Source of the DNA: a virus
IMG/VR virus record: IMGVR_UViG_3300045988_113959
Span: 31,643 to 95,642 of that record
DNA length: 64,000 nucleotides
Reading direction: 5' to 3' (one strand)
Shown here piece after piece: positions 715 through 54,271 of this stretch. The notes beneath the pieces were generated by a model that saw nothing but the letters and a program-made list of their open reading frames with translations, was not told where the DNA came from and ran no database searches. Every line of letters starts with the position of its first letter. Position 1 is the stretch's first letter. A program made the position numbers and the translations under genes.

Positions 715-733
715 ATCAGTTATAGCTAAGATT

Positions 734-1603
734 ATGGCTGATTTAGATTCTTCTGAGGTAAGGTAGCGTACAAGTGATATTAAGGAGTGGATATTTGAAG
801 CCATAGATAAGATTGGTGCACCTATGCAGTATATCAGTAGACAGTCTGGAGCCGATGGAGTTCCTGTATATAAATTACAGGATAATTAGATTCCATTGCC
901 TTCAGACTTAGTGTATTTAGATGGGGTAGCCTATTCTACATCGGAAAATGGTCCGTGGATTCCATGTAGTACTTAGACTTCTATATTTAAGAAGTAGAAT
1001 ACTACTCAACCTAAACCTATAAAGAATGTACACTTTGAAGATAAAAACTTAGCAAAGGAAGAATAGATTACAGAAGAGCAAAGAATGTAGCATAAAATGC
1101 CAACAGTTCAAGCTCAAATAAATAGACCAAATACTGGAGGTTTCTCTGACTTGTTATATAATGACGACTTCTATGAAAAGCCAGAGTACTTTATAAAACC
1201 AGGTTGGATTGTAATGAATAAGAAGAATGGGTACATTAAACTTGCATATAAAGCAATACCTACAGATGAGAGAGGATACCCTTTAATACCAGATTTAGAA
1301 TCATACAAAGAAGCTATATACTGGTATGTTAATATGAAGTTGTCATTCCCTAAGTTTATGAAAGGATAGCTTGGTGGGAAATTAAAGAGTGCAAACATTA
1401 CTATATATAACTATATACATAATAGATGGAATTATTATAGAAATCAAGCTTATGCTGAAGCCATGATGCCAACTCCAGATGATATGTAGAATATAAAGAA
1501 TGATTGGAATAAACTTATCCCAGATTGGGATGGAGATGATACATTCTTTAATTATATAGGAAAAGAACAATTAACTTATAATGATTACTACAATGGATTC
1601 TAA
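734..1603 (+). CDS. hypothetical virion structural protein (289 codons, 8 in-frame TAG)
   Basis: Runs from ATG 734 to TAA-TAA at 1601-1606. No TAA or TGA occurs in frame. Tracked ORF 1097..1369 is an internal piece. The stop overlaps the next gene's ATG at 1593. Confidence 0.75.
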
Positions 1604-6257: not shown

Positions 6258-8425
6258 ATTATAGAAGAAGAATGAGAATGCCTATATAGTATCTTCCTGG
6301 ATTTGCATATGGCACATCATATTTACCATGGTACGCATCAAGGCGTAATATGTATGGAGATACAAATGATTATTACAATATAGATGGATAGTATAGACCA
6401 TTAAATGGAAGAAACTCTAATATTAAAGGCGTTGTTGGTAAATTAGGAGATAACGCCAGTAATATTATGTCTTCAGGAATACAATTCGCTGGAGATTTGG
6501 GTAATGCATTTGGTGGCGTTAAGAGTGTAAATGATATACTTGACGAAACTGGAACATCGTATTCAAATGGTATAGGTTTTGGGTATCAGAGAATAAATGA
6601 TATAGATAGAGGGGCTTAGCTAACAGAACTTAGAAGATAGAGTCAAAATAATACAATGAAGACTGTTGGGTCTGGAGCTGCATTGGGTTCAACTATTGGA
6701 AGTGTTGCTGGACCAGTTGGAGGATTGATTGGTGGTGCCGTAGGTGCTTTAGGAGGTCTTATAGGTGGTTTATTTGGTGGTGCTAAAAGAAAGCGTAAAA
6801 TGCTTAGAAGATTAGAACTGGCAAAAAAAGACGCAGAAGCAACAAATAACTATAATCAGAGTTCATCACAATCTGACTATATGATTAATGATTATTATAA
6901 TACAAACGGTACAACTCAAGATGATGTATTGTACGCTAAGCGTGGTAAGGATAAAGGTTATTCTGCTAATGGTATTAATACAAAAACCAATGTGTACACA
7001 TCACAAGGAAAAGTTAATACTACACCTAATGCTAGAGTTGCTGCTGGAGAAAGTATTATAGATAATATAAATGATACAAGTAAAACAACTGGACATGTTG
7101 TTAAAGATGGTAAGTTAGGACAAGATACAAATCTAGCAAACTTAAACGATAGTACAATTGTTCTAGGTCAAGATATAGATTGGAGAAATGGAATGACATT
7201 TAGAGACCAATCTTTACCATACACACAAGCACTTGAAAAGATTAATAAGAAGTATGAAAATAGAACAAATAGTTCTATAAATAAACTTAGAGGAACTATA
7301 GGTAAACAGAGTGATGAGCTACAACAGCAACAAGTAAATAAATTAAAAGAACCTATCGTTCAAAAACTTAAAGATTTATCAGAGCAACAAGCTCTTCAAC
7401 ATAGTCAACAAGAAATGCAAAATAACTATAATATGCCTGGATATGCAAAAGGTAAGAATAATACGTATGGTTATATAGAACCAATGAGCTGGTATAGTAA
7501 TGCTGTACCGATGGGTCTTGGAATGCTTACAAGTCTTGGTCAATATTTTGATGCAAGAGGTTAGAAGATACACACTCCTGATGTATACGCTGGTAACCCA
7601 TACGAAACTGCTGCATTGAACGAAATGTCAAAGCTGAACGTAAACCCATATAAAGCAATACAAGACGTATATAAACAAGATAGAATTAATAGATATGCAA
7701 TCAATAGAGCTGGTGGTTTAAGTGGTTCTCAGAAGTATTTAGCTAATGTTGCTATGGGATTAGGTACTCAAAGTAATATAGCAGATGTGATACAAAAAGC
7801 ACAAGAAGTTAATAATCAGTATAGAGGTAAGTGGGCTGAAGCCGCACTTAATGCTGGTAATGCATTAGCTCAACGTAGACAACAAGCTAATCAGTATAAC
7901 ACAGAATACGCATCACAAGCACACGCAGCAAGACAACAAGGTATGCAAATGGGTATCCGTAACTTTATGGATTACTTACAGCAATACGCAGCAAATGAAT
8001 ATAAGCGTAAGACTGGTAACGGAATGCTTGGATTATATCAGCAACAAGTAGATTTAGATAGAGATAAGTTTAATGCTGGCAACAACGGTGATAATATACC
8101 TGATAATAATGATAGACCATTCTCTTATTCAAAGTATTATAACTTTATGAATGGTATTAATAGCAACAATAGTCCTTATAAATTTGTACCAACAATGAGT
8201 TTAAATACTGGTGCTAATAATAGTATTTTTGGACAAAAGGAGCCTACTAAACTTATGACATACATTAAGAACTACAATCCTAATAGTAATAAAACAACTA
8301 AAATAAAACCTGGCACTGTAAGACCAACTGGAGTTACAAATGATGTAGTTATACCTTATGCAACATACGTTCCACAGTATATTGATTTTACAAACCCAGA
8401 CCCAAGATGGTTAAATTGGCAATAA
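6248..8425 (+). CDS. virion internal/ejection-type protein with glycine-zipper segment (725 codons, 5 in-frame TAG)
   Basis: ATG 6248 overlaps the upstream stop. Tracked ORFs 6656..7564 and 7616..8425 are in the same frame, joined across TAG 7562. Contains GAALGSTIGSVAGPVGGLIGGAVGALGGLIGGLFGG followed by KRKRK. Ends at TAA 8423-8425. Confidence 0.8.
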
Positions 8426-8436: not shown

Positions 8437-10524
8437 ATGGTTTACTCGAGAGATTAGTGGGTCCAGCTCCCAGTTAGAGATTTATACGATTCTCAGATAA
8501 TGCTGGCATCTATAAACGCTGCAAGAGATATGTATCAGCGAGGTGTAGATGAAATGAAGGAATTTAAAAGGGAGTATGGAGATTTCTATAGTCCTATACA
8601 GAAAGATATGGATTGGTATACAACCAATGTTACTTAGGGTATGAGAGATACCATAGAAGACTTATATGCTAGAGGAATCGACCCACTTAGGTCTGCCGAA
8701 GGTAGAGCCATTATATCAAGGAGAATTAACAATGCTCCTATTGGGGAAATAAATAAATTAAAGATGGCTTCTAAAACAGCTCAAGAATATCTCAAAAATA
8801 GGGGTGTTCTTGAAGCTCAAGGTAGGTATAATAAAGACTATGAAGACTTTGTCAATGGTGGTAAGACTATTGAAGATTGGGATACTCTTAGAGATGGTAT
8901 TTGGACAAGACAAGCTCCATCATAGTTTATGACATTAAAAGAAGCTACAGAGAACTGGTATAATAATAGAACACCACATTCACTTACACAAAAAGAAGTT
9001 GAAGGTTTTGGCGTTAAATACGATAAAAGATATAATTATACAGGATTTACAAAGGACGATTTACTTGGCATTGCAGCTAAAAATACTCCAGGTTGGAACG
9101 GTTCTCAAATAGCTGACTACTATAGAAATGTAGCAAAGAACTAGTTATTATCAGAAGGTATTGAAAAGCCAACCAATTAGCAAATAGAATACAGATTGTA
9201 GCAGAATGTCGCTGCCGCTAATGACGAGTATAAGATTAAACCTATAGAACAGGTTAATCAGTATGCAATGCTCGATAAGCAACAAGCATATCAAACACAA
9301 GCTCGTAGAGAAGGCTTTGCTCACGATAGGGAAATGGCAGCATTTAATGCAGCTAAACAGAGAGAGATGGCATATCTACAATGGAGGTTATCAAATTCTA
9401 CTCCAGATGGAAATGGTAATCCTGCACTTAAGAACCAACAACAGCAACCAATTCCTCTTTCATTTACAGAATAGCTTATAGAGTCTGCAAATAGAAAGAA
9501 GACTGATAATATAGCTGGTCCAAAGAACTTCCAAGCAAATACTAAGAAGATATCAGATTATTGGTTAGGTAAGGCTTATAGTGTATTAAGTAAAGCCGAC
9601 AGTAATGGAGATGGTAAACTATCTAAGGACGAACAAGCAAACTGGAAAGTTAGATATAGTCGTTTATCTCCATATCAAAAGAAACTTTACGATAATGCGA
9701 TACATCATAGAAATTGGTGGAATAAAGTTTCAGCTGAAGGTTATGGTAACGCTGCCAAAAACGGACTTATAGATAAGTTTGGTAATGTAACAAGTAGATT
9801 TACTAACGCTATGGCTTATTCTGATAAGAATACTGGTAATAATGGTTATAGTGATAATGAAAGAAATAGAATAAACTCTAAATACTATAACAATGTATTT
9901 ACAGATATCAATGAAGAAGGTAGAAAACAAATAATAAATCTTCTTACAGGAGGAAATGAAGAAAATTATGTAATAGATGAGAAAAAATCTAAGTTTGGAA
10001 AGAAACATCCTGTATTAAACTTTTCAGAAAGTGGAGTTTGGTTTGGAAATTATAGAGCGCATAATGCGTCTACTGGAAGAGATTTAACAAATGGTAGTAT
10101 AAGTAAAACATTCCAAAATTTCCTCAAGAGAAACAAGGTAAAAGGCTGGGTTGTTAGTAAAAATGGAATCGGTGTAACAACTGTTCCAAATAGAGGTAAG
10201 GGTCAATCCTTGGATATTTTAGCAAATGTTTCAGTACCATATAGTGTGCTTGAAAGGTATGCAAATTCTATAGGAGTTGGCTCTTCTAATATTCCTCAAT
10301 TGATAAGGAGTTTAGGTTTAAGAATGATGAATGTTAATGGTGATACTATAGATAAGAAAGAAGATAATACGTTTGTAGAAATACCAGTATCTAAGCAGAT
10401 AGATAACAATGGCGGTCAAGGTTATGGACAAGTAGACACTTCTTATGATAAGAGTTTATTTGGCGGAAAAGAAGCCGCAGCAAGAGAAATACAAAGACAA
10501 TATAAATCTTCATAGACAAGATGA
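8437..10524 (+). CDS. virion protein with an EF-hand-like loop (695 codons, 8 in-frame TAG)
   Basis: Runs from ATG 8437. Tracked ORFs 8641, 8929, 9268 and 9811 are all in this frame, separated only by TAG. After TAG 10513 the frame continues three codons to TGA 10522-10524, forming an ATGA overlap with the next start. Confidence 0.8.
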
Positions 10525-13500
10525 TTAATATGAGATATAAGAGTTTTAATAATGGTAGTAAAAATAAAACTTCATATACAACTCCTAGTGCAAACGCATG
10601 GTTAGCCAGTTTTGAGCAAAATAAAGCCGCTCAAAACCAGGCTTTCTCTGCGCCTTATAATAGTGGTATATATAAAGGAGACGCTACTTCCATTTACAAT
10701 GCTCCCGCTACGTATAGTTATGTGGACAACGGAGCAAGCATAGAGCAAGATTCATGGCTCGACAAAGCAAAAAGCTTTATTGATAATTTAAATTCATCAA
10801 CATTAGCTCTTACTGTTGGTATGGCTATTGGTGATGTTGGTTTTAAAAACACAGCGAGGGCGTTTACACAAAAAATGCTCGAAACTTCATCTAGTGACGA
10901 TTTAGCTAAAATAGATGATTATCAGCAAGGTCTTAATGATATATAGCTCGTTGAAGAGTATAGTAAATTTCAAAATGACAAAAGTAAGCTCGAAGCACTT
11001 ATGAATTACCATATAAAATCTGGTGGTAGTACGAGTGATATAGAATATCAAACACTTAAAGTTCAATATGATGAAGCTAATAAGCAAATAAAGAGTCTTG
11101 ATGATTATTTTACAGGAGAAGGTAGAAATCATCAAGTTGTCAGAAAACTTATGTACAATCTTGACAATGTATCAACTTCTGATAAAATTAAAGCAAACGC
11201 ATCTTATATATTTCAAAACTTAGGTGGAAATGATAAATGGTATGATGGTCCGATTCAATTATTAAACCTTGGTAAAAACATTCTAAATTACGGAGCTAAT
11301 TATTTAGGGAAGCTTGGAAATGCTACAGGATTAACTAATAATTCATATTACAATACAGCTATAACAGAGCAAGCAATCATGAACTCTGATTCATTCTTAA
11401 ATCTTTACAAGAAAAATCAAAAACAATACGACGTAAAGAAAGCTCAGGAATGGAAGAAGTATTTTAAAGATATGATTGCAGAAAAAACCGTAGAATATGA
11501 ACAAGATAAATATGCTGCAAGAACTGGTAATGTAACACTTGGTTAGATGGCTAGTGCTATTCCTGTTATAAGTATGTTATATGATGGAAGTGTGAGTAAT
11601 TCTCTAAACCTAAAAAGAAATGCTTTAAAAAATAAAGATAATTGGGCTAATGGAACTATAAAACTTTATAATCCAGAAGATATTCCAGAATCATTTAAAC
11701 AAGGTGTAGATAAGTTTGGTGAAAACTGGTATGATTTTATTATACATCCCCAATATGCTGCTGTACAATCTGCATCTAGCGTTGCTATGATGAAACATAC
11801 TCTTAATGCTCAAGGTGTAGATGCGTTATTAATGTTTGCTGCTAAAAAACTTCCAGTTATAGGTTGGGCTGCAACTGGAGCATCTGTTGCTAATAGTATT
11901 AATTCTGCGGTTAAACAGCGCGAGCAAGAAACTGGAATGGAAAAGATTCAAGGTCTTGGTACAAGAGTATTCTCTGAACTTGCCGCTACAGATGAAAGAA
12001 ATATAAGTAATGTTATATCTGAAATTAAAGATTATGCAAGAAGAAATAATCTTGATACAACAGATATGACTCCTCAAGAACTTATAGAGATGGGTGTTGC
12101 TTTTAATGTACAAACAGACAACTCAGCATTTGAACAAATTAAAAAAGATGCAAGAAAGGGTATAAATAAACTTGTTAATGCGAATAACGCATTAGCTTTG
12201 ATGGATTATGCTCAACAAATGCCATTCTATTCATTCGGTGGTAAAGCTTTAAATAAATTTGCTAAAGCTGTTATTAATAGTAGAGCTAATCAAGCTATAG
12301 CTAAATTTTTAAGCCCTTCTTTACGAGCAGCATCATCTAAGCTATCACAACCAGTAATGGAAGAACTTGTTGGCGTTCAAGATTATTTACCTACATTTAA
12401 TGGTATCTTTAATGCTGCTACAGATAAAATAGCAAATAGATTTATAAAGAAAGAAGCAGCTTCTGCAGAGTAGTTTGCAAGCAATATGACAAAAGGTCTT
12501 TATACAAAGTCTTTAGGTAATTATTTAAAAAATAAAAGCAAACTTTTACTCGCAGAGGGTATTTCTGAAGGAATTGAAGAAGGTCAACAGCAGATATTAC
12601 AAGATAGATACGCAAGAGGACTTTATGACGAATACGGAAAAGATGCTAATATATTAGATATAGATGAAGTATTTGGCAATGTAGGTCTCGCTGGCGAATC
12701 TGTTCTTGCTTATTTTGGTTTAAGACCATTTGATAAGAACTTGAATACTGATGAGATTAGGAAGGCTATGAATATAGGTTTTGCTTCATCTATTATACAA
12801 AGTGGAGTTCAGCATTCGCTTAAAAATGTATTACCATCTAAGTTTAGAAATGGTGATAGTTTTAGAGATTTTGTACAACAAGTAAAATCAGACAGAACTG
12901 TAACAAGCCTTATAGGTAAACATTTTGAAGACCTTGACGACCAGTCTCATCTTGAATTATTTTATAATGCATTTAGAAGCGGAATTACTGATAAACAGCT
13001 TATAACATCTATGAATAGACTTAAGGGTTAGCTTGATGAAAGTAATCCCTTTATAAGAAAGTCTAATATGGATGCTGATATATAGTTAATGCAAAACGCA
13101 TATAATTTATATAACAATAAAGAAATCAGAAAGACTTTAAACGAAGCTGGTATTGAAACTTTTAGTGATAAATATAAAAACTTCGTAATAACTGGAGCTA
13201 AGAGAATAACAGACTATCAGATGAGTAATGATGCTGCTAATCAAAATGCAATAGAAGTTGATAGGCTTAATCATGAAAGAGCTAATATTGTAGATATGCT
13301 ATTTGAAGGAACTTTGTCAGATGATGAAATAAATAAGATTCAAAGTGAAAATCCTAAGCTTGCGAAAACAATTAAAAAACTTAGTGATGAATATGAATCT
13401 ACTAAAGAGTCTATAGATAAGAAGCGTAAAGATGATTTTAATTTATTTACCAAAGAACTAAGTAACTTTGACTCGTTTAAAAACAATAAACATATAAGAG

Positions 13501-16500
13501 AGTATGTTTCGCAAAATCATGCAAGTGGTAGGCTTGGAAAAGCTGCATTTGATGAAGATATAGCAAGTGTGTTTGGAAATGCTTCTTTAAAAAATTCAGC
13601 TATAGAATACGCATTTAGACAAGCTCATAAAGAGCAATTTAATAACTTGTCTAAAAATTTCAACGATGCTATAAAAAATAAGTTTATAGTTAAAGCTTTA
13701 CGTTCTAAACTTAATGCCGAAGTAATATATTCTTCTTTAATTGATAGATTTAAAAACGATAAAGATTTTTCTGAAGAGATAAGAAGCATTGCTGAGGATT
13801 ATGCTTTTAACAACAACGTATCTAAAGCTGAATTTATTAAAGAAAGAATAGCCGTATTAAATTCTCGTAGACAACTTAATAATATAAGAAAGATATTATC
13901 ATTATCTGAATCAAGGTTGGAATTTCTTAATTTATATCAAATAGAGACTGGTCTTGATATAGATACAAGTAAGCTTGGAACTCTTATATCAGAACTTAAG
14001 AGAATGGAGAAAGGTCTTGTTGATGAACAAAATAGAGTTCTTGGGAATAAGAAAGGTAAAATAAACTATACATATGATGATTTGTTTGAAGACGACATTG
14101 AGGAGTATGAAATAGATAATGATAATTCTTATGACTAGGCTGTTACAAGATACTTTATAAATAAAGCTTCTTTGAAATCTCAAAAGATATTAGCTCAAAT
14201 GTATTCTCTTGCTGGTAATAAAGATATATCTATAAATCCAATATCTCTTAATGAAGCTATAAATGGTACAAATAGAACTGACGTGTTTAATGAAGAACTC
14301 ACCCAGTTTGAGAAGATGAATGCTAGGCTTAATTCTAGGAATGAATTAGAATCTGAACATGTTGATGTGTAGGTTACTCGTAAAGATATGAGCGAAGTTT
14401 CTAAAAAAGCTCAATTAAAACAGCTTCTTAAAGACCTTGAAGACCAAGAACATAGATATAGAATAGCTAATAGGTTATGGAAAAATGCACCAGTTACAGA
14501 AGTAGATTTAAATGATGCTACAGACGGTGATGAAGAAGCTTAGGATAAAGTTGATTCAGCAGTGGATAAAATCATCAATGCTGCAGATAGCGAAAAATCT
14601 AATACTACTGAAGGTGAAGTGCCTGCAAGTAGTGAGCTTATAACTCCTGATACGTTACACCAAGAAGACGAGCTTGCTGAAAGATATATGAATAGAAATA
14701 AAACTCGTGATGATAGAAAGCGTAAACAAAAAGAAAAAGCTCTGAATGGTAAAAAGGATACAGATGATGTTGAAGATAATAATTCTAAAGAAGAACTTAA
14801 AGAAAGCCCAAAAGACCCATTAAGCTCTCTTATTAATGGAATGATGGCTGATGATTCTGATGTTAACGAAGAGGGTGATGGTGGTGAAACCGTTCCAAGT
14901 AAAGATACACCAGCTAAAAAATAGCCAGAAAACAAACCAGCCAAATCTACAAGTACTCGAGATGAAGATGATATTGATAGTATTATAGATAATGGTGATA
15001 AAACAGATTCTGAACTTGATTCTAAAACTGAAAAACAGAAAGATGATTATTTAGAAGAAGAATTTCCAGATGATGCTGATTATGAAGAACCTGAAGAATA
15101 TATTGAAGATGATTCTGAAACTCAAGAAGCTGCTGTTGAATTAGAGTTAGAAGACGATGATGTTCAATAGACTGCGTCTGAAGTTGAAGCTGAGGTATTA
15201 AACGATGAAATTGATATTCAAGAAGCTGCGGCAGAAGCCGAGGCTGAATCTTTTGAATATATAGAAGATGCTAGTGATATTGATACAGAAGATTATAGTA
15301 CAACCGGAAGGGTAAAATACAAAGATAAAGTTCTATCTAAGAAGCAGTCTAAACAATTAATGGACGAGCTTATAATATTAGGTAGGGCTGAGATTGATGG
15401 ATTTGACCAAAAAGAACTTCCAGATGGAACTGTGCAAGATGTTGAGATGTATAGAATGAATGTTACAGATGATACTATAGGTAGTTTTATAAGCAATACA
15501 TTCTTCTATCAACCAAATCCAGACTTATTTGAAGAAACTGGAGAATATGAATTAATGAAGCTTACTGTTAATGGTGAGCAAGTTAAGCTAAATAAACCTT
15601 TAGCATCTGGCAAGCAATTGTCTGAAAAGCTTTCTCAAGAAGGTTGGTTACAGTCTACAAAAAAATACTATATAGTAACTCAATCTCAACAGTCCGAGAA
15701 GAATACTATAGGCGACGTTAGAGACTCAATGACCGTATGTCTTATACTTGAAGATGACAATAATACATACGCTACTACTCTTAGAGCTCTTGGATTAATG
15801 GTTAGTGATATACCTGGAGACCCAAATGGTAAATATACAGTATCTCAATAGAAGAATTTAATTGACAGATTAATAACAAAAGGTGTTGATTTTTCTAAGA
15901 TATTAAAGCCAGGGCAAAGATTACCAAATAGTTATAGCAGAAGGGCTAAGTTAGCCATAGATGCTATAAACGCAATGGAAATGAAGCTTGCTAAATCTTG
16001 GTGGATTAGTCAGGGTAGAAAAGAAAGTGATTTTGAAAACTGGTGGTTACATAAACCATTAAAGAAAGATTATCACAAATCTGAATATGAGAATGAATAC
16101 AAGCAAGATTTAACAACTTGGAGGAATGTACATACTCAATTTAAAATACTTGCAAGAAAACATTATCAAAAACCTGGTAAGAAAATGCTTACCGAAGAAG
16201 CTATAAAAGACCAAATAAATGGTCTTAGAGAGCTTAGAAATAGTATAATTGATAAGTATTTAGAAAAAAGAATTATCAAACAAAATGGTAAAGAAGTTGT
16301 TGAATATATATTCCCAGAACATGTTAGAGATGATGTAACTCCATCTTATGTTCAACAAAGTAATGGTGTTATAGATAATGTTAAAGAGAAGAGAGTTGTT
16401 GGTAATAATGGTTCAGCTACAATAGATTAGATACAAACTCAAATAAACGACGGAAGTATTCTTCTTGGATATGGTAAAGGTGCATTAGCAGAGACTTCTG

Positions 16501-19500
16501 AACAATTTGCAATATATGGTTTATTATCAAAAGATTCTGGAAAGATTTATGATGGTAAAGGGTTGTCTGGTAAGCTATATTGGCTTGTTAAAGGATTATC
16601 TGGAACAGATGCACTTGTACCAATAATGCTACATGAGGAAAGATTCGATACTCAGGATTTTATAGATAAGGAAGGACATAGAAAAACTAAGTTCATAGGT
16701 TCTAAAGATGATGTTAAACTCACTCTATCATATGACGCTATACAAGGAAAACTCATAAATACAAGTAATGGTAAAATTATTCCATCTACTGCTGAGATTT
16801 TGATGTATATGCTATGCGGAAGATTTAATTTTGGAACTAATAATAGGACTGAAATTGATAATATTGTAGAGTTCTTTATACATAGCGGTGAGAAAACACT
16901 ATTGAGAAATCAACCAAAAACTGGCGGAGACCCTATGAACTTCTTAGCAAGAAAGCAATTATTCTTTGGAGATGTTGATAATAGTGGTATAAATAAGTTA
17001 CATATAGGTATAGGCGACCCTCTCAACGGTTATCAAGAAAAGATATATACCGAAGATGAAATATTTGAAGATTCAGAACAAGGAGAAGCTAATAGAAGAG
17101 AAATAGTTCATGCTATAGCGACTCAAATGCACTGGAATACTGATATAGATTTTATAAACTCATCTATAAAAGTTGGAGATTCTACATCATTAATTGGTAG
17201 ATTTATACAAAATATGATTAGTGAGTATTTCTCCGGTAAAGGTTTAACTCCAGAACAGCAGCTTGAAAAAACTATAGATATTCTTGATAATAAACAACTA
17301 TCATTTAAGGTTAGTGATTTCTTTGAACTTAAGAATGGTAAATTTGCACCAAAGTCAAACGTTAGTGTGTTAGCTTGGCTTCTTTCTAATAAAAAAGTAA
17401 GTACAGATGTATCTAAAAAGATATTTAAAGACCCATTCGTATTTGCTGGTGGTGTTAATTCAGAAGCTCCAGCTCCGTCTAATGGAAAACCGCAATCAAC
17501 TTCAAAAGTTGAACTTGTTGGTAGTAATAATGATGTTGTTAGTACTGGTTTTAGTGTAATAAATCCCGATTTATTCAATAAGGCTAATGAAGCTGCTGGT
17601 AGTAAAGTAGAAGATGGTAGTAAAGTGGTAGAGCTTCGTAAAAACATGGGATTCAAATCTCCTAAAACACAAGAAGAAAGAGAAGCTTACAGAAAACAAC
17701 TTGAAGAGGCTCATATAAGTGCTAATAAGAATGGAGGTTTGCAAGATGCTATATATGTAACAGACCCATATTTAAATACAGACTTTAATAAGTTTAATGT
17801 AGGTAATATGGATAAGCTTATAGACCATCTAAACTCTCTTGTAAAAGACTTCTTGGATAAGTATAATAAAGAATACGGAACTTCATATAAAATTGAAGAC
17901 ATTGGCGGTATAACAAAAAACACAGCTCTTACAACTATAAATAATATTAGAAATAACAACGGTTACCTTAGATTGGATTTGTTTAAAAACGGTAAGGGTA
18001 AACTTCAGTTTACAACAAGTACAATGAAAACTTGGAGCCAACCAGTAACTGGTGTATATTCTAAACATAAATCAAATGGTAAGTTTGATAAAGATAAGGC
18101 TGTTAAGTGGCTTGAAAAACATCTAGGTATAAACAGATATAATATTATAGTTAGAAACGGCGTAATGAGAAGTACCGATAACGAATAGGTATTTGGTGTT
18201 ACGCAGGTGTCTTTAGATAGAATAGCTGGCGAGCTTACAGGTCTTATACAACTTTCAACAAATGGTGGTGAAGGTGTTACATATCACGAGGCTTGGCACT
18301 ATGTAAACTTGTTGCTTAATGATGCTAACACACGTTCTAAAATATGGGATTCATACGTTAAGACTCATAAAGAACTTAATAGAGATGGCGTAACAAATCT
18401 TATGATAGAAGAAGCTCTTGCCGATGAGTTTATGAACTATATAGTTATGCAGCAAGATAATTCTCTACCAGGAATGGTTAAGAAGTTGTTTAATAACATA
18501 CTTGACTTTGTTGTAACATCTCGTAGAAAGTCTGCGTATAGAGCTTTATTTAGATCTATAAAAAGAGGTGAGTTTGGTAATACCGAACACCTTGATAAAC
18601 AATCAGCTAAAGAGTTTGCTGAAAAGTATAAATATGGTGTAAACAAAATAGATTATTCAGTTCCTGGATTTTCTAATAAGGATTTAAATAATCTTAAGTA
18701 TATAGATAATCATACAGATTTATTTGCTGTATTAGACGCCGTTGTTAGAAAAGTTATATCTGACTTTAATATAGACTCTATAGATAAGATTAAATAGATT
18801 TCTGGTGCGTACGATAAGAATCAACAGCTTGATTTTAGTATGCTTCTTGACAAGGTTCAAGATATGGCTGACGAAGCTGATTCAGAACAAATGTCATCAA
18901 TGCTTCAAGATATACATGATAACCCAGAATTTTTAAAGCGTAAGCTTGTAGAAACTTTTGCTGATTTTGGAATAAATGTTAAGATTAGAAGAGAAGAGGA
19001 TGTTGATGAAGCTGAAGATGCAGAAGAAAGAAATGATTTTGAGTTTGATAAGTTTGATTTATCTATAAGTAAAAAAGACAATGCGGCTTTAAGAGTTAAG
19101 ATGTTTATGTATTCAATACCTAAATACACAAGAGTTTTTAATGAAGATGGTTCAGTAGATATACAGATGGTACAAGATGGCTTTGGCTCGTCTTTATTCT
19201 GGGATTTCAACGAAGCTTGGACAAAGATTCTTAAAGATTTATGGCAAGCCTCATCTCTTGACGATGTATATACTGAAGACGTTGTTAAAGATGGAGTTGT
19301 TAAATATAATAAGGGTGAATATAAATACAATTCTATATACGGAATGGTTTCTCGTAGAGCAGAATCGGATGTGTTTTATTACGCACTCAAAGAAAAACTT
19401 AACCAATTACTTGCTAATAAAAATCCAGATGTTTAGCTTAGAAGCCAATTGTTTGCTACCATAAATTCAAGCAAACCAAATGTATCTTATATAAAAATAT

Positions 19501-22500
19501 CAGACCCAAAAGATTGGAATAATAACGATGACGAATTTATTGATGATACAGATATAGATTCAAGTTTATATCAATTCTCATTAATATCTGATAAACTTAG
19601 AGAGTGGAGAATAAATGATGATTCACTTGTATCAACTGAAAGAAATATTGCAAGACAGTGGTCTAAGAATCTATTTACAAACGGTTTGACAAAGATTGAT
19701 GGTAATAATGGTATAGTTGTTAGCGATTCTTTTGTTAGTAGCAGGCAAAGAGAACTTGATAAAGTTATAAGAAAACTATCTAAACTTCTTGTTAAAAAGA
19801 ATAAAAGATATATATCAGGCGAATCAACGGTACTATCTAAACTTAATAATACTGGTGAAGAATCTGCAATAAAGAATGATATTGTTAAATTCTTAAACTC
19901 TATAGGCATAGATGCTGATAGACAGTCTATAGATATTTATATATCTATGAACTCCGATAATGAGAATGTATCTGGATACGAACAAGCCAAAATACTTCAT
20001 AGACTTCTTAGTAGCACAGATAAAGCTAAAGGAGGTATAAGTGGTATTATAAATGAAACATTATCATCTTCTGTGGGTGAAAATATAATTCAAGCTGATA
20101 GTGTTAATGGTTTTGAAAAACAGTTAGATCAAGTATATAACAACTATAACAAAGATTCATTTATAGCACAACTTGCTGTATCTTGGGACGCTGTACATCC
20201 AGACCCATCAGACTTCTCTGTAAAAGGACCAAGTGGAGAAATGTATTATCCTATAGGATAGAATAACTATATATCAAGTAGGGTTAGAAATCTAAACGAT
20301 GCACAGTCTGAAACTTCTAAAAATCTTAGAAGAGACCCTTATTCAAGACACTCTTTATTGCTTGATGCTGCTGACAATGTTAACGAAGATGATTCTAAAA
20401 CACAGCTTAGGATAAATGCATTTGTCGGTCTTAAAGATGGTGATAGATTAAAAGGTAGTGATTATTTTGGAATAACAGCTATGGAAGATTATCTTTCAAA
20501 GATGTACATGACAGAGAACGACCATCTTATATTACCAACTATGGCTGATAAGAAAACTTGGTACTCTATAACATCACCAAATCTAAAATTAAGACATGAT
20601 GTTGTAATATCAGAAATACCAAATAAACTTATTAGAAGTGCTGCTGTTGATGTTTATACTGAGAATTTTAAAACTATAAAGAAATTTAAGAGTGATAATA
20701 GTATTGTCGAAGTACCAATTAATGAGTTAGATGATTACGAATTAAAGTCTTATGTAATGGATTGGTATAGAAGTCTCCCATCTAATAGTTATAATAGAGA
20801 AGATATTGAAAGCAGAGCTATTAACCAAATGTATAATGGTTCTAATTTTAATGGCTTTAGTGTAGATATAAATGGAAATATTATTCCTAAATATTCTAAT
20901 GATACATTAAATATACTTGCTGGTTATTTTATAGATGAACTAGATGCTCTTATACAGTACTATTCTGAAGATAATATAAAATATCTTACTGAAAATCCAA
21001 ATAAACTTCAAGAAAATTTCCATGGTGTTATAAAGGATGGTAGAATGGACTTTTCTGGTAATGGTGGTAAATTTAGGTATTTTTACGATATAGTGCCAGA
21101 ATATATAAATGGGTACAATGTAGAACATAATCTAAACCTAAACCAAATTCTACAGGCAATATTTGAAGCTCAGAAAAAGCTTGAAACACCTGGATTTAAG
21201 GTTACAGAAGATGACAATTCAGTTATGAATGGTTATAATGTATCACAATTAAGAGCTTTGCGTTCAGATAAGTCTGAATTAGATGGATTTGAACTTGTTA
21301 GAGATTATTTAAAAAAGTTGAGAGAATATGCTGTAGAAGAGGAGAATCTTGGCATTAATAAATATTCAAAGGATATTTTAAATAGTGTAAACAACTTTAT
21401 ATATAGAGGTGTTACTAATGAGCTTGAGCTGTTATCTGAGAACGGACCATTGCAAATGGTAAAGAAAGATAAAAATGGCAGATTTGTACCTACAAATATA
21501 CCGCAACAATTCTTTAATCCTTATGTTGAAGCTTTATCTAAGACTAAATTATTCTCAGGCAACGATTTATACGATAACTATTATATTCAAAATAGTGCAC
21601 TCGTATCTCTTATAAGTAATCATTTTGTAAATAGTATAATTTCAACTGTAGAATTTGAAAAAGTATTCTCTGGAGACCCTGCTCAATATAAGAATAAAGG
21701 TAACAAGAAAGCTCCTTTTGTTAGTACAACATTATCTATTTCTAATGAAAATAATAACATTAGCATCGATGTTGACGTTGACAACCTAGATGATATGCAC
21801 TCTGATAAAATCAAACGTCTTGGAAGTACATTATCTCCAGGAGAAGAGATTAGAACTCAGTATAATAAAGATGAAATAGAAAAGCTAAACATACCAAGTC
21901 ATTCTAAATACACAACACTTGATGTTGAAGATATTAAAACACCATCATTATTCTACGACGAAGTAAAACAAAAATTCTTAACTTAGCTTGTTGTAGATTA
22001 TGTTAGAACTGGTGTTATAAAAGAACAATTTGATAACTTTATATCACATATAGCTGGCATTCTTTATAAGAAAGCTAAAGATAGGTCTAATGGCGAAAAC
22101 ATAAAGCCAAAAAGAGTTTCTAAATCACAGGCTATAGATTTATTATATTCTGACAAAACTTACTTTGATATTTTATATAATAGTATTCCTAAAGATATAA
22201 AAGAAAGGATAGAATCTCAACTTGACCAATAGATGGACCCATATAAGAAAATAAATGTATGTGATGCTCAGGTTATAATAAGACCAGATTTGTATAGAAG
22301 AGTTAGAATTGGTCTCGGACAGTGGTCTGTAGTTCCAGATGAAACTGGATATTCTGATGAAGATGCGTTTAATATAATCGAAAACGGATATTATATAAAC
22401 GAAGATGGTGAACGTGTAAACATTGGAGAGCAAGATTGGGCTAAAGATAAAAATCTCGCATCAAAGATTCAAAAGTTACAGCTATTCCCATTAAAGATGT

Positions 22501-25500
22501 CTTATTTTGATAATTATTCTCACAAGGAGGGTGATAATTTTAGAAATAGAACATTACTTAATAAGATGGCTATATTTCCATTGTTTAAATTTAACATGTC
22601 TACAAACACGGGTTCTAAACTATATCTAAGAATGAATAGATATGGTGATTGGATAGATATGATTACTTTTAAATCAGCTGTTAAGGTTGGTGCTGTTCAA
22701 AAAGGATTACAGTTAATATCTAATGATTCTAATGTTGAAGATGGCGTTTCTAAACTATCTTCTTTAGTTGATAGAGATAGTGATACTGCTATAGATTATA
22801 AGACCGGAATTGTTATTAATAAAGGTTCTGAAAATTCACTTTCTGTAAAAGTTCAAAGTTTAGATAATCTTAGAATGCAGTTAAATACAAAAGCTCACGA
22901 AACAGACGAACGTATGATTGGTAAGCAGATGTTTAAGCTGGCATTCTCAAACTTAGTTGATGATGAGAAGTATGGTCATGGTGATAAAAGAAGAACTGGA
23001 AAGTCTATTAGAAAGGATATTATGACCACAATTAATCTACTTACATAGTTTGGTGTAATATCTGTAAAAGATGAGTTTTTTAACGAAGATGGAGATGTTG
23101 ATAATTCTTCTGTATCAAGTTTTGTTTAGAGAGTTTGTAGTAGCAATGGTTTAGGCGCATCTGCTTTACAAATACTTAGTAAAGGTGGAACTATATCAAG
23201 CTTAATGTCAAGAAGAGTATTTGAGAATAGTGTATCTAAGTTTATAAATAAACTTGTTGTAGATATAAACTCAAAAGGTGGTACTGCTATTCAGCAATCT
23301 GTACTTGGATTCTCTGCATTTAAGAAAGGTGATAATTTACTTGGACTTGAACAAGCTAAAGGTAGAATACCAAAATCAATACAATTGAATAATGGAAACG
23401 AATTAAAGTGGAAGACTAATAAAAACTACACCCAAGTGATATTAAGCGAAAACTTCTTTAGGGATATAGTTCCAGCTAATATTCAACAAATGGGATATGA
23501 AGCTATAAGAGCTTGGTTGTTTGAAAAGAATATAATTGGAGAAAATGCAAATCCACTTGGTGTTGGCTATCGTATTCCTACACAGGGTCAATCGTCAATG
23601 TTTGCGCCACAAGTTGTTGATATTCTTCCAAAACAGTCTGGAGATGTTATAATAGTACCAAGAGAGTTTACTGGTCAGACTGGTTCCGACTTCGACGTTG
23701 ATAAGATATTCTTAGCTCTTAAATACTTTAACAAATCAGGTTCTGAACACGATATAGATTATGATTTAATAGAGTCTATTTATAATGGCGAATCTAGTAA
23801 TATGTAGGTCGCTGTTAAAATTATATCTAAAATGTCTGGAAGAAGTGAAGAGGATGTCGCTAAAGCTATAGAAAGTCAAGACGATGAGTCTATTAATTCT
23901 ATTGTTGATGATTTAGATATAGAAAAAGCTGTAAAAAATCACCTTATAAATACTTATATAGACATTCTTACAGATGATAAAAACTTCTCACTTGCAAGAG
24001 GTTCTATTGACGTTGTAACAAATATATTGCAAGACTAGCTTGTTAAGAAGTATCTAAAAAATACATCTAATGGCTATTCTGTTGGAGGTTATCAACTTAG
24101 TCCGTATTTCCAAACTATGAGAAAACTTGAGTTTAGTTCTGGTAAGCAAGGTATTGGACCATTTGCTCTTAATGTTACAAACTTATCTCTTACACAGTAC
24201 ACTAGATTAACATTTGACTATGGTGAAAATCCATATGAGTTTGGAAGTCTTGATGCTATATATGGAGAAGATGGAATGCGTATTGCTGACTGGCTATCTG
24301 CAATGGTTAATGCTAATGTGGACGTTGCTAAAGACCCATATGTGTTTGCTTTAAATGTAAACCAAGCTACATATAGTCATACTAACTTCTTAATTAGAGC
24401 TGGAAAGGGTCTTGGTGTATTTACATTCCTAACACAACCATCTATAAAAGAGTTTGCTAATATAAAAAACAACTCTGGTAATGTATATGGTTTTAACTTA
24501 GAAGGTGATAAGAGTGAAGGTGATTATACTGGCAAGTATGAAAAGAGTATATATAATCAAATATACTACGGTATTATAAAACAACTTAAAGAGTGTTTAT
24601 TAGCTGTTGACGATAAGGATTCTCAAAAGTAGATTAGGAGTTTTATAAACTATGTAGATTCTTTAATTATAGACAAAAATCACAAAGATATCACACCAGA
24701 GGAAAGAAAGTCTATAAAAAGACCATTTTCTAAGAAGTAGATGTTTGATGTTGAACTTGGAAAGAAATCGTTAGAATTTAGTAATAGTAAACCAGGAGTT
24801 AACAAAGCTTCATCGCTTGCGTTCCAAGCTTGTGCACTAAACTCATTTAAAGATGTTGGTGTTTATGCTAAAAAATTATCAGATTTAGTTAAAGTATCTC
24901 AGATTGATACTAAGAAGTTTGGTAATTCTATAGCTCAGCAAATAAACTTTTCAAATCGTATAGATGTATTTAAAACAACAGATGGATTTACAATAAACAG
25001 AAAAGATTTTAAATCTTGGGTTTAGCAGCTCGCTAAAGAAAGAGAGGCTAAGACTGGGTAGAAAGTATCTTTAGGGAGATTTGAATCTACCGTAGCTATA
25101 AATGAATATTTTAAGAACACATTCTTAGGTAGTAAATTTAAAGAGTCTAAAAAGCTAACAAGATTATTACTTAAGAATCAATCGTTTACAGCAACAAGAC
25201 TATTTGATAATATATTCAGAAACATAATGGGTTAGACATTAGGCTTTAAAGATGCAGATGAAAATACTGTTAGTTACAAACCTACTTCAAAAGATGAGGT
25301 TGTAAACACAATATCTGATTCTATTGATAATGTCTTAAGGTTCTTATCGTTATTTGGCGTTGGTTCAAGAATTATTAAATCTGCATCATTTAAAGAAAGA
25401 AATCCAGACGCTATAGACTTTACAATGGGTGGTGATATAAATCTTGTTAAAGATAAAATTAAAACTATATTGTTTGGTAATAAAGAAGTTGATAATATCT

Positions 25501-27557
25501 TTTTAAGATTTAACAAACTTAAGAGTGATATGCAAGCTAATCCTTAGAATTACCCAGGTCTTATAGACCCAGTTACACTTGGTGTTCAGAATGAGCTTTT
25601 GAATTATCTAAATCCAATATCAGCTAATGAAAAATCACCTGTTGGTAGATTTGTGTTATCTACAAATCAAATGAAAGTTAATCAAAGTAAGAAATAGATT
25701 TTATCAAGCGCATTTAGTCAACTGTTATCATATCAAGATGAAAATGTTAGACAACTTGCTGAAGATTTAGCTTTCTATGCATATTATTCTTCTTATGACC
25801 AGAATAGAGTTGACGCATTCTTTGATTTAGTTCCTGTTGAATACAGAGCTCAATATGATAAAGCTCTTATGTTTGCTCTACACGATATGAATCGTAGTGA
25901 AAATAAACTTGTAAATACAAACAATGATTTATTAAGTTTATATAACTATGATGTTAATAATATTGAAGCTGATAGAGCAGAAAATATAATCGATATTATA
26001 TCAAGAAACTATTGGTACGATGATAATATAGTTAAAACTCACTATATAAAAGAAGATGAAAGTGTTTTTTTATTAGGAGGAGGTTATGATGTTCTTGGAG
26101 AGCCAGTAATTGTTCAAAATGAAGATAATAAGGTTTATCCTAACTTTATAGTTACTAGCAATTCTGATAGCTCTTATATTAAAATTAAGAGTGGAAAGAA
26201 TTATATGTTGTATAAAAATATAGGTTCTGTTATTAAATATAGAGATGGTAATATCGTTGGTATTCAATATGTTTACGCTGCTACAAACAAGGCTGGAATA
26301 AAACAAGGTCAAGCAAATATTCTTGAGATGTATGGGTCTTTTGGTGTTGGTTCCATATTTGAAAATAATAAACTTGATGAAGAGTTCTCTCATGATAAAG
26401 TTGTATCTGATGTAGAAAAGCTTGTAAAAGATAGTAATGAGGCTAATAGCGGTTATGGTTTTGAATTATCATGGTATAAGCCTGTAATAAAACAATCTAC
26501 ATCATAGTATAAAGATAACTTTATTCAGACTCAAATTGCTAATCCCGAACGTGTTATAAAAGTTGGTCCAGTTAAGTTAAAGGCTGGTCAAAAAGCTCCA
26601 GATAGAGTTGGTATAAACAAAGCTGATGTAGTTATAAATATAGTAAATGATTCTGTTAAAGAATCAGATTATTATAATACAATAAAGAGTGAAGATGCTA
26701 AATAGAAAACCGTTACTGTTAATATGAGTGAAAACCCGTCTAAGTTTATAAATAAGATTTTAACCTTAATAAATAAGGATAATGCTATTATACACTTTAC
26801 AACTCCAATATTTGATTATATATTAGAAAGAGGAGTTAGTGATGATAGAATCAGTAAATATATTGAGAGTGAAATTGAAAGACTTGAGAATGTTTTTGAT
26901 ACACAAGATGTGAAAGAAAAAGAAGTGCTTCTTAAACAAAATAGAGAGATGCTTGAAAGCTTTAAAGCTCGTAGAGTTTTAGCTTTGCAAGACCTACATT
27001 CTTTTATTAGAGAAATATTAAACCAACTGTCTATCAATGACGTTAATATAAATAGAATATCAACATCTTCTACTAAAAAAGGAAACTCTAAAAGATATGC
27101 TTTAGCAAAATCTGTAGCCGTATTGTCTAATTATATGCAATATACGTTCTCTGGTAAGAATATAATATACTGTAATAATAATCTTACATCTGATAATAAA
27201 GCATTTAGAAATTATATAAAAGAACTTCAGTATGAGGTTGACGATAGTGAAAATTTATTAGAAGATGCAGCTATAAATGAGTATATTGATATAAATCAAA
27301 CATTAGCTAAAGATGTAATGAACTATGACGACAAATCATCTAATATAGTAGAAAGGACATTAAAAGAAAATACTGGCGAAGATTCTAAAACTTAGACAGA
27401 AAGTAAAACAGATGATGACGCTAGCAATAATATATCTAGTTTTGATTCGCTAAGTATACTTTCTAATGCTATAGACTATAGCTCTGATGATTTCTTGGAC
27501 GAAGTTTAGGAAGATTTAGAGAATGATTTAGAAGATAATAATCACGAAAAATGTTAA
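10521..27557 (+). CDS. giant virion protein (5,678 codons) with a two-barrel RNA polymerase DxDxD motif and a zincin HExxH motif; about 33 in-frame TAG
   Basis: All 21 tracked ORFs from 10521 to 27395 start at coordinates divisible by 3. I read every gap between them and found only TAG, never TAA or TGA. Ends at TAA-TAA 27555-27560. Motifs are GYRIPTQGQSSM...GSDFDVDK (23565-23702) and HEAWH (18285-18299). Confidence 0.85.
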
Positions 27558-27563
27558 TAATAT

Positions 27564-30500
27564 ATGTTTTGTCCATATTATAAAAATAAAGAAGTGTTTG
27601 ATGGCTTTAATAGTATGATTCAAGCATTTGGTGGACAACCTATGACGGAAGATGAATTTAAGTCGGCTAATCTAAGAAATTAGAGAGTCGGCTTAGATTT
27701 ATATGCTATGGAAGCAGCTTATAGGTTGTATGATAAAAACGGAGGATTGTTTTTAGATAAAGTTCCAAACAGTCAATCTAAAGAGAATCCAAACGGTATA
27801 GATTCCAGATTATTCTCTGATATTCTTGCTAAGAATAATGGTGATTATCTTAAGTCTATAAAAGAAAAAGCTCAATATTATTCTAAAAGGTATATTAATA
27901 CGTACGGAGATTGGCTTTCAAATAAACCAAATAAAGATTCTTATTTAGATATCAATCACGAACCAATAATGAATAATGAAAGAGCTTCGATTGCTCTATT
28001 TAGTGCTAATTAGACTTTTGGTGATGGTATTGGTAGGCATGACCCAGTAACAAGGTTATTTGCAGGAGAAGTTGTGAGTTCTACATATTTGTTACAATAT
28101 TTCCTAGATACTAATACGTTTTCTTTAAAGAATAAAATATTAGCCAAAGTTTTATCTAAGCACGATATTCCAGTAAGGATTAATAATAGTATAAATGCAG
28201 ACGCTGACAGTGTAATTGTTAAAGGTTATAGATATATACAGTTTAACGGTAATGTATTAAGAAATTATTCAAATAGATATGTAGCGAATACATTAATACA
28301 CGAGATTGTGCATCAATTAACAACTGGTGCATTACGTAATCCACAAACTAAAGAAGAAAAGGATTTATAGAGAAATGTGAAAAAGTTTTATAACTATATA
28401 AACAAACACTTTAAAGAGTTTTCTTCTATATTTAGCGACGTGGATGGTGCATTGTACGCTATGGAAGATGAGTTTGAATTTGTTGCAGAATTAGCATCAG
28501 ATGAATATACTAGAGAGCAAGTTTATAAAGTAGCAAAATTAATAGACAATAATAAAAATATTGTTATACGAACACTTAATAATATAATAAACGCAATATC
28601 AAAAATACTTGTTGGTAGAAGTGTAGTAGGTAGTGTTAAAGAGTTTGATAAGCTTAGTAAGTAGGTTGAAGATTTTTTAATGTCAAGAAATGTAATTGTT
28701 AATAAAGAACCTTCAAATTAGGAAGTTATAAATTATTATGATGATATAATGAAAAATGCATCTGATTATGATATGGCTGGTGAAAACATTATTCATCTTA
28801 ATAAAGCTGTAGACTATATAGATAGACATTATAAAAAATCATCTAACAATAGTGATACTTATTATCAAAATATACAAAATTCACTATCTGTTAGACTTAA
28901 TGCAATTAGAACATCAAGTTTAGACGCATCGAAGAAAGCTAATCTAATCAACTCAACACAATCTTAGATAGACTTGTTTACAATATCAACTATATCTCAA
29001 TATGATGCCATTACATCGTTTTTGAGACAGGTTGTACCACAATTAATACAAGATAAACAAGAAATCTTCGATATTTATTACAAGCATAAAAGTTTTACAT
29101 CTAATGATTATATGTTTCAAATGCATAGCAATATAAAAATGTATGACTCAATCGTTGAACAACTTCAACTCATGCTTAGTGAAGATGGTAACATTCAACA
29201 AATTGTAGACTTATATAACAAGGGAAAAATTGACAAAGATAAAATATCAGTAGATGATTTACTAAATGTTAAACAAGATGTTGATAATTTGTCATCAGTA
29301 ACTACAGCTGCTAAGGCTGTATTAGACCACATGTTAGATTCTATAAGCTACGATAAAATGAAGGATGTATCAGAATCTGTTGGTGCGAGAGAAGGTGTTA
29401 AATATGCAGACTCTTTTGTAATGCATGAGATTATCAATGATGATATAAGTGTTAGACAGTTGTATGCTGGAGCGTCAGATTCATCAACAAATGAGGCTAT
29501 TAGAGCAATATCTCATATGGTAAATAAAGCTATAGAGAATGCTGATAATGACGCAATACCAGTTGGTTTAGCTATGCTTAATGCTGTTAAGAATCTTAAG
29601 CGTGGTGAGTCTCAATTATAGTTATATGAGTTAGATGAAAATGGTCAAACTACAGGTTATCTTGTAAGAAATTTAAATTATGGTAAATTCTGGAAAAATT
29701 ACGATAATGCATTGAAAGATATAAATAGAGCCGTTACTAAAAAATTTAGTAAAGATGGTCTTATATTAAAAGATGATAATAGATTTCCACCAGATTAGAA
29801 TGATGATGCAAGAATTATGTGGAATAATATGAGAAATAAATGGCTTGCAGAAAATTCTCATAGAAAATATACTCCAGAGTATTATAAAATATAGTCAGAG
29901 GTTCCATATTCTGCAAGAAAAGCATTAGACCAATATGATTCTCAAATACAGTCGTTATTATCTAAACAGGGTGTTATAGATGAGAATGGTATAAAACATT
30001 TCGATAAGCTAACAGATGAAGAATGGGACCGTTTAAAGTCAGCTTGGAGAGACAAAGCAATGCTGTATGAGGATTATACTATATTTGGTGTTTTAAAGAC
30101 CGGAGAAGAGCTTAAAATAGCTCGCTCACTACAAGACTTCAGAAAGAAATTAAACGACTATAGAGAGAAGAAAACAGGTAAGAAATTCGACCCTGTTTAT
30201 GACCAAAAAGGTTGGCAAAAACAATTTGATAAGATAGTTGAAGAATGTGGCGGTAAAAAAGCGTTCAACAAGTGGATGCAAGATGGTTACAGTTCTAAGT
30301 TTGACGATTAGAAATTCCTTAAGTGGGCAAGAAGAAACGCAAGACTTCAGTTTAAGAAAGATGAAGATGGTAATGCAATAGTATTTGAGAAAATAAAAGA
30401 AGCTATGCGTGGAATTTCAATTGACTTTGGAAAAGAATACGATGAGCTTAAAGAAAAGAGACAAGCATTACTTAGACCGCATAAAGACCAATATGGTGAA

Positions 30501-54048: not shown

Positions 54049-54050
54049 AG

Positions 54051-54092
54051 TGAGTATGAGAGGAATCGAACCTCTTTGAGCCTACCATACTC
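54051..54092 (-). ncRNA. acceptor/T-arm minihelix at the 3' end of the tmRNA-like coding piece
   Basis: Reads GAGTATG-GTAGGCTCAA-AGAGG-TTCGATT-CCTCT-CATACTC-A, a self-contained 7-bp acceptor plus T-arm. Confidence 0.4.
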
Positions 54093-54253: not shown

Positions 54254-54271
54254 GTTGTTTATCTATTATTG

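Follow-up and report, generated by a model that had tools for sequence, protein, structure and literature searches.

Known polymerases of crAss-like phages and the locus under study

The gene discussed here occupies positions 10521-27557 of a 64-kb stretch of viral DNA (the window; positions 31,643 to 95,642 of IMG/VR record IMGVR_UViG_3300045988_113959) and is predicted to encode a giant RNA polymerase (RNAP) of the kind found in crAss-like phages. Virion packaging and transcription of early genes by this type of polymerase are known for phages phi14:2 and crAss001 only (bioRxiv 10.1101/2020.03.07.982082; PMC10172136), and gp47, gp49, and gp50 of crAss001 have been found in virions by mass spectrometry (PMC10172136). 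In Cellulophaga phage phi14:2, the order is g067, RNAP (g066), and g065, three genes of 1,797, 2,180, and 1,421 amino acids (aa) that are read with the standard code. Kehishuvirus 'tikkala' (Steigviridae, the family of crAss001, for which it stands here) also has separate genes, which encode a 2,310-aa RNAP subunit (sub1), a 2,412-aa RNAP, and a 1,349-aa subunit (sub2), and it shows no recoding. Its RNAP and sub2 genes lie on the opposite strand, so fusion is impossible there. In the Suoliviridae, a fused and recoded giant polymerase gene is already documented, with RefSeq single genes of 4,494-5,794 aa, and giant RNAP genes of "up to ~6000 aa" have been called a hallmark of the group (PMC10136315).

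Large polymerases of two other kinds share features with the protein proposed here. The N4-like virion RNAP (~3,500 aa) and the RNAP of P23-45 (5,002 aa) are packaged in the virion, ejected, and transcribe early genes, and that of P23-45 is fused to another virion protein, the tape measure (PMC13434306; bioRxiv 10.1101/2022.12.01.518664). The N4 enzyme is a single-subunit, T7-like polymerase that is not homologous. P23-45 comes from another phage lineage, and its polymerase is joined to another partner.

The locus at 10521-27557 is very probably a single late gene from a crAss-like gut phage of the Suoliviridae-like (delta) group, which reads its late block with genetic code 15, and its 644-kDa product would join a g067/gp47-like protein to a two-barrel RNAP. 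It shares with phi14:2 the order of the parts and a homologous catalytic region. A preliminary description of this DNA proposed a comparison with the separate genes of cultured crassviruses, and both Kehishuvirus and phi14:2 do have the parts separate. Matches to the separate sub1 and RNAP genes, together with the gene order of phi14:2, therefore identify the predicted product as a g067/gp47-like protein fused in frame to a g066/gp50-like polymerase, with the g065/gp49-like protein remaining separate.

A single open frame of 5,678 codons

The gene is defined as follows:

10521-27557, plus strand: giant gene, 5,678 codons, with 33 in-frame TAG codons most likely read as Gln

From the ATG at 10521, the frame contains 33 TAG codons (the first at 10944, the last at 27507) and ends at the TAA at 27555, which is followed directly by a second TAA at 27558. 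With the first TAA included, the gene is 17,037 nt long, and its predicted product has a mass of 643.8 kDa and a pI of 5.3. The coordinates, length, and TAA-TAA end given in the preliminary description are correct on recount, and the mis-read in-frame TAA or TGA that it named as a possible refutation is absent between the ATG and 27555. The closest in-frame stop 5' of the ATG is the TAA at 10503. The ATG itself overlaps the TGA of the preceding recoded open reading frame (ORF), 8437-10524, in an ATGA, and the next ORF begins with the ATG at 27564. Every ORF of 150 aa or more that the standard code gives in this frame does start at a position divisible by 3. The 21 ORFs from which the long frame was first recognized are not the full count of pieces, as 33 TAGs give 34 segments and only the longer ones had been tracked.

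In the other two plus-strand frames of the same stretch, TAA and TGA together make up 4.8% and 15% of codons. At these frequencies, the chance of 5,678 codons free of both is P ~1e-121 or less, so the open frame cannot be random. TAG accounts for 0.58% of codons in the giant frame versus 2.7-2.9% in the other frames.

TAG is read as a sense codon

The frame can be compared codon by codon with that of a close relative, IMG/VR contig 3300045988_058211 (L009), a comparison from which relatives at 71% identity were left out. The giant gene of L009 (L009:2543-19513) encodes 5,656 aa with 87% protein identity to that of the window and contains 14 TAGs. At the 33 TAG sites of the window, L009 has CAA in 10, CAG in 9, TAG in 4, and GAA in 4, the remainder being AAA or AAG (3), AAT (1), GCT (1), and a gap (1). 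In the reverse direction, the window has CAA or CAG at 8 of the 14 TAG positions of L009. Among four more distant full-length homologues, Gln stands opposite TAG in 11% of cases versus a background of 3.6%. The amino acid inserted at TAG is thus most likely Gln, judged from these alignments. The late genes of delta-group crAss-like phages have been described as reading TAG as Gln (PMC7886860), and this assignment has been proven by mass spectrometry in other crAss-like phages (PMC9523058).

The two genes diverge by 9.4, 5.0, and 28.1% at codon positions 1, 2, and 3, and the third position is the most divergent in every 400-codon bin. A stretch from a TAG to the following ATG, GTG, or TTG would be non-coding were every TAG the end of a gene. 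The 871 codons in such stretches diverge from L009 by 11.3, 5.8, and 29.8% and retain 85% amino-acid identity. The giant frame is coding and under purifying selection along its whole length, and its TAGs are read as sense codons. Conserved genes with in-frame TAG and with only TAA or TGA as terminators are the pattern of code 15.

The same evidence bears on the simplest alternative, in which the TAGs are ordinary stops and the stretch is either a pseudogene in decay or a row of about 34 short genes, each independent. Read with the standard code, the gene does fall into roughly that many pieces, with ORFs up to 542 aa, and GenBank annotates the homologue in Dulem virus 42 as fragments. However, the frame lacks TAA and TGA throughout its 5,678 codons (P ~1e-121), the gaps between ORFs evolve as coding sequence, and homology to the phi14:2 polymerase gp66 and to other giants runs across the TAGs. 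The TAG sites are Gln codons in the close relative and therefore not gene boundaries. We give this alternative practically no credence. The possibility that the TAGs are genuine stops, raised in the preliminary description as a potential refutation, is answered by the alignments at TAG sites and the divergence in the gaps, and the single gene read through TAG that it proposed is upheld by the exchange of TAG with CAA and CAG, by coding-type divergence across the gaps, and by full-length collinear homology.

The positions of the TAGs are not conserved between the window and L009. The number of TAGs differs more than 2-fold between the two giants (33 versus 14), and most of the differences are TAG versus CAA or CAG. 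This lineage therefore gains or loses amber codons rapidly.

Full-length homologues

A tblastn search with the C-terminal 1,990 aa of the giant protein found 109 phage records, mostly crAss-like, of which the best were the following:

Dulem virus 42 (PP511876.1): giant of 5,633 aa, 36 TAG
cr273_1 gp35 (YP_010113556.1): giant of 5,794 aa, 36 TAG
cr7_1 gp32: giant of 5,443 aa, 148 TAG
cr60_1 gp27: giant of 4,494 aa, 55 TAG

The phages cr273_1, cr7_1, and cr60_1 are classified in the Suoliviridae, with cr273_1 (Buhlduvirus animalis) placed in the Oafivirinae. The four GenBank giants are 29-39% identical to the window protein over >4,000-5,100 aligned columns. In cr273_1, cr7_1, and cr60_1, the giant is annotated as one RefSeq coding sequence running through in-frame TAGs and occupies the same place in the late block as in the window, although the proteins are only 29-33% identical to that of the window and the TAG positions are almost entirely different. 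In cr273_1, homology is collinear over ~5,100 columns, a gene of ~2,000 aa comes next, and a divergently oriented replication block lies beside it. Dulem virus 42, the closest annotated GenBank relative (38.5% identity), also has a recoded giant followed by a 1,881-aa ORF, but its GenBank annotation splits the giant into dozens of standard-code fragments. The gene after the giant encodes ~1,900-2,000 aa in cr273_1, cr7_1, and Dulem virus 42 and 1,473 aa in cr60_1. At all four loci, it is followed on the minus strand by the same replication module.

Full-length collinearity and a common neighbourhood place the window's gene among the giant fused transcription-block genes of the Suoliviridae, and the crAss-like origin first suspected is confirmed by this homology with four GenBank phages and IMG/VR contigs. 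They also bear on the caveat, raised at the outset, that the long frame might be an assembly chimera joining two genes. No support for a chimera was found. The same end-to-end architecture is present in one IMG/VR contig from another assembly and in the four GenBank genomes (from lemur, pig, and human samples), and the junction region is matched by five further IMG/VR contigs, which leaves a chimera with a negligible probability. The preliminary description had placed a fusion of this size at the extreme end, and this does not hold, as RefSeq Suoliviridae carry versions of 5,443 and 5,794 aa and a review gives "up to ~6000 aa" (PMC10136315). Judged by these comparisons, the giant gene is real, not a chimera, and not the largest of its kind.

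The polymerase moiety

The C-terminal half of the predicted protein is divided as follows:

19068-26420, plus strand: predicted virion RNA polymerase moiety, aa ~2850-5300, by homology to gp66 and the Kehishuvirus RNAP; ends approximate
23688-23702, plus strand: predicted catalytic motif DFDVD, aa 4390-4394, aligned to DFDID of gp66
26421-27554, plus strand: C-terminal tail, aa ~5301-5678, poorly conserved, with an acidic run at its end

The giant protein matches phi14:2 gp66 (6vr4_A) with E 9.5e-22 in phmmer. The best stretch aligns giant aa ~4117-4650 with gp66 1111-1675 and sets SDFDVDK opposite the catalytic SDFDIDK, while a second, weak stretch, a candidate for the second double-psi beta-barrel of the chain, aligns aa ~3692-3772 with gp66 868-953 (independent E-value 0.028). 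Giant aa 3905-4647 also match the 2,412-aa RNAP of Kehishuvirus, and DFDxD is found in all six giants. By this homology, the C-terminal half is a predicted gp66-type crAss-like virion RNA polymerase, and the polymerase motif reported earlier belongs to a region that does match PDB 6VR4. When ten overlapping 680-aa pieces of the giant were scanned, nothing was hit in PHROGs, and the Pfam matches were all noise below threshold. The tail is the least conserved part among the giants, and no homology to it was found outside the giant group.

The N-terminal moiety and a putative zincin-like domain

The N-terminal half and the inferred junction contain the following features:

10521-18986, plus strand: N-terminal moiety, aa 1 to ~2822, putatively g067/gp47-like by position and by its C-terminal domain; boundary approximate
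14499-15293, plus strand: acidic low-complexity stretch, aa 1327-1591 (265 aa, 46 D and 46 E), by composition
18042-18695, plus strand: putative zincin-like domain, aa ~2508-2725, with the motif HExxH...EExxAExF
18285-18299, plus strand: HEAWH, aa 2589, the HExxH motif
18408-18431, plus strand: EEALADEF, aa 2630, with a downstream Glu as candidate third zinc ligand
18987-19055, plus strand: acidic segment RREEDVDEAEDAEERNDFEFDKF (aa 2823-2845), located where the fused moieties are inferred to join

Several of these features had been noticed in the preliminary description and are present as described. HEAWH at aa 2589 and DFDVD at aa 4390 were both found, the former invariant across the alignment of homologues, and the D/E-rich linker corresponds to aa 1327-1591 (265 aa, 34.7% D+E). 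The N-terminus is indeed rich in Q, N, and A, which make up 24-31% of six of the seven 100-aa blocks in the first 700 aa and 19% of the seventh. In later blocks, the share is 7-20% in 37 of 50 and reaches up to 27% in the remainder. The acidic stretch is the least conserved and fastest-evolving part in the comparison with L009 (72% aa identity in codon bin 1201-1600).

Giant aa 2522-2687 match aa 2097-2251 of Kehishuvirus sub1, its C-terminal end (blastp E 4e-12; profile E 4e-21). Like the giant, sub1 carries an HExxH...EExxAExF domain near its C-terminus, whereas g067 of phi14:2, which matches the N-terminus of sub1 (E 7e-8), has no HExxH. An 11-sequence alignment that includes sub1 shows no variation at H86, E87, H90, E127, E128, A131, and F134. 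This is a gluzincin motif, with a putative fold and activity. The best PDB profile match is the Clostridioides difficile M34 protease Zmp1/PPEP-1, which spans exactly the HExxH and EExxAExF elements at an E of only 0.09. A search for homologues with the HExxH region returned eight fragments only, none of them Pfam-labelled. Alignment offsets to gp66 and the Kehishuvirus RNAP, when extrapolated, would place the junction of the two moieties near aa 2750-2850.

Several results weigh against the reading of 10521-27557 as a fully translated fusion of these two proteins. The first ~2400 aa have no detectable similarity to g067/gp47, and the putative equivalence of the N-terminal moiety to these proteins is drawn from gene order and the C-terminal HExxH domain. 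Matches to aa 1 to ~2400 occur only in Suoliviridae-like giants, and a profile built from six giants detected the HExxH domain and the polymerase in the proteins of relatives and not the N-terminal 2,400 aa. As a zincin, the domain is weakly supported. Neither Pfam nor PHROGs gave a hit for it, the AlphaFold2 (AF2) model of a TAG-free 202-aa piece built with nine sequences is poor (pLDDT 52.9), and a Foldseek search of this model against the PDB returned no match at E below 1. Each of the five full-length homologues examined is itself TAG-recoded, and no standard-code genome with an uninterrupted ORF was found among them. A yield of full-length protein through 33 TAGs needs very efficient suppression, and no transfer RNA (tRNA) with the anticodon CUA was found in the 64-kb window by ARAGORN, relaxed settings included.

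It is possible that the product is a true polyprotein that is cleaved near aa 2750-2850, and perhaps at the acidic stretch as well, to free a gp66-like polymerase and a g067/gp47-like protein. The protease could be the internal zincin-like domain or the one in the g065-like protein encoded downstream. Cleavage has been proposed by Drobysheva et al. (bioRxiv 10.1101/2020.03.07.982082), and phi14:2 and Kehishuvirus encode the parts separately. All giants, as well as Kehishuvirus sub1, share an invariant HExxH...EExxAExF motif, its best PDB match, though weak, is to Zmp1 over the metal-binding motif, and an acidic, less conserved segment lies at the inferred junction. However, no cleavage-site motif was identified in the protein, and the predicted protease fold is unsupported by the model and search described above. 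The fusion has also been kept across very divergent Suoliviridae (28-39% identity), so the tethered form could equally be functional. We hold cleavage as a tentative option, plausible yet not favored. It refines the interpretation of the locus as a single fused gene and does not exclude it.

Neighbouring genes and the recoded block

When TAG is taken as sense, the plus strand from 1 to 33236 becomes a tight row of long genes, each with 2-33 TAGs and a TAA or TGA end:

689-1603, plus strand: recoded gene, TAG read as sense
1581-6257, plus strand: recoded gene, TAG read as sense
6248-8425, plus strand: recoded gene, 725 aa, in the position of cargo protein gp45/gp46 (g069/g068); assigned by position only
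8437-10524, plus strand: recoded gene, 695 aa, in the position of cargo protein gp45/gp46 (g069/g068); assigned by position only
27564-33236, plus strand: gene downstream of the giant, 1,890 aa, 20 TAG, predicted separate g065/gp49-like RNAP-associated protein with HExxH at aa 246

The preliminary description had proposed a comparison with the cargo and polymerase genes of cultured crassviruses to see which are fused. A fusion is present, and the partner is the g067/gp47-like RNAP-associated virion protein; the small gp45/gp46-like cargo proteins would remain separate upstream, at 6248-8425 and 8437-10524. No significant sequence match was found for the products of these two genes. The product of 27564-33236 matches phi14:2 g065 aa 162-352 (E 1e-6) around a common HExxH, at aa 246 of this product and at aa 245 in the zincin-like N-terminus of g065, and it matches Kehishuvirus sub2 (E 1e-7). 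The transcription block of the window therefore holds two HExxH domains, one in the giant gene and one in the gene downstream. In Kehishuvirus, the g065 homologue (sub2) is without HExxH.

An antisense ORF within the giant gene (17123-17656, minus strand, 177 aa) was judged to be a shadow ORF and not a gene. It has a TTG start and is rich in Leu and Ser, and its antisense frame contains a number of further long open stretches; in L009 the ORF is open as well.

The minus-strand genes at 33.8-62.3 kb are complete under the standard code, with almost no in-frame TAG, and GC skew flips at ~33 kb. Recoding is confined to the plus-strand block 1-33236, which matches the late-gene block of crAss-like phages. 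On the minus strand, two ORFs (52895-53608 and 58952-59560) have TAG as their standard-code stop, and reading through it adds only short tails with more TAGs. TAG seems to be a true stop in these two ORFs and Gln in the plus-strand block of the same genome.

A further alternative is that the TAGs of the giant gene are partly efficient, regulated stops that yield a ladder of truncated products with little full-length protein, so that polymerase stoichiometry or timing would be set by the density of TAGs. The first TAG is reached at codon 142, and any inefficiency would be multiplied by 33 TAGs. TAG number shifts fast (33 versus 14 at 87% identity), the two minus-strand ORFs hint at termination at TAG outside the recoded block, and recoding has been proposed in the literature to time late-gene translation (PMC9523058, PMC7886860). 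Nevertheless, the catalytic polymerase region lies downstream of 18 TAGs and is under purifying selection, which argues that read-through is efficient enough to make the polymerase, and the lack of conservation in TAG positions is contrary to specific regulatory stops. We regard this alternative as improbable.

A proposed suppressor tRNA and other RNA genes

In relatives, a candidate suppressor is found beside the dUTPase gene. ARAGORN places a tRNA(CTA) just upstream of dUTPase in cr273_1 and Dulem virus 42, and one lies within 1.5 kb upstream, usually immediately so, in 19 of 43 IMG/VR dUTPase loci from Suoliviridae-like contigs (L030-L072). Several others of these loci have a tRNA-Val(TAC) downstream or four-base anticodon calls (taaa, ggaa). 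By synteny, the dUTPase region of the window's lineage would lie outside the 64 kb. Searches of IMG/VR with two anticodon-arm patterns matched other contigs and none of this lineage, the dUTPase-anchored loci include none from its contigs, and a walk from the last gene of the window reached a 12-kb contig with no tRNA on it.

The window does contain a tRNA-like gene at 44552-44633 (minus strand), which scores 53 bits with Rfam and was missed by ARAGORN; its D-loop, at 16 nt, is unusually long. The anticodon loop is CUAACAA, with AAC as the canonical anticodon and CUA two bases out of register. This gene was rejected as a standard amber suppressor because CUA is out of register.

A permuted transfer-messenger RNA (tmRNA) gene was also observed in the early/middle block at 54047-54361 (minus strand), with its core at 54138-54331. 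It scores 68.2 bits with Rfam RF04321, against a gathering score of 47, and ARAGORN reports it as tmRNA* with the tag peptide GNFNVVDYTCVA*. The program also gives tmRNA* calls with similar tags for cr273_1 (GNINVVDYTGLQEAA*), where RefSeq likewise lists a tmRNA, and for Dulem virus 42 (GNDNNIVDYTHVA*), where the call is in the early block; both of these are below threshold in Rfam. In a literature search for tmRNA and Crassvirales, neither term occurs in the titles or abstracts among the matches listed. The early block of Dulem virus 42 additionally carries a RAGATH-1 hammerhead ribozyme (L027:25433-25501, minus strand; PP511876.1 ~93433-93501) at 69.8 bits, above the Rfam gathering threshold. 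Rfam reported no equivalent in the 64-kb window.

Implications for the biology of crassviruses

Taken with the relatives and the literature, the locus suggests the following course of events. The TAGs of the giant gene would be read by an amber-suppressor tRNA(CUA) of the phage, whose gene would lie beside dUTPase and outside the window, so that the giant protein could be made only once this tRNA is expressed. By analogy with phi14:2 and crAss001, the protein would then be packaged into the capsid and delivered by ejection to the next host, in which its polymerase would transcribe the early genes. The moieties may be separated by cleavage, perhaps through the zincin-like domain that the protein itself contains. 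In a more specific form of this idea, which we consider rather unlikely, the giant is a self-processing, ejected polyprotein whose M34-like zincin would cut at about aa 2823-2845, in the capsid or after ejection, and thereby activate the polymerase, while the 33 amber codons would act as a timer until the suppressor tRNA accumulates. Both the self-processing and the amber-timer ideas have been floated in the literature, and we know of no crassvirus in which either has been demonstrated.

The current understanding of crassvirus biology is unchanged by these results. Their main practical gain is correct annotation, as the standard code yields ~34 meaningless fragments, which is the case for Dulem virus 42 in GenBank. 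The window adds a divergent member of the fused form, with no GenBank phage above 39% identity, clarifies which two genes were fused, and shows how fast TAG codons turn over.

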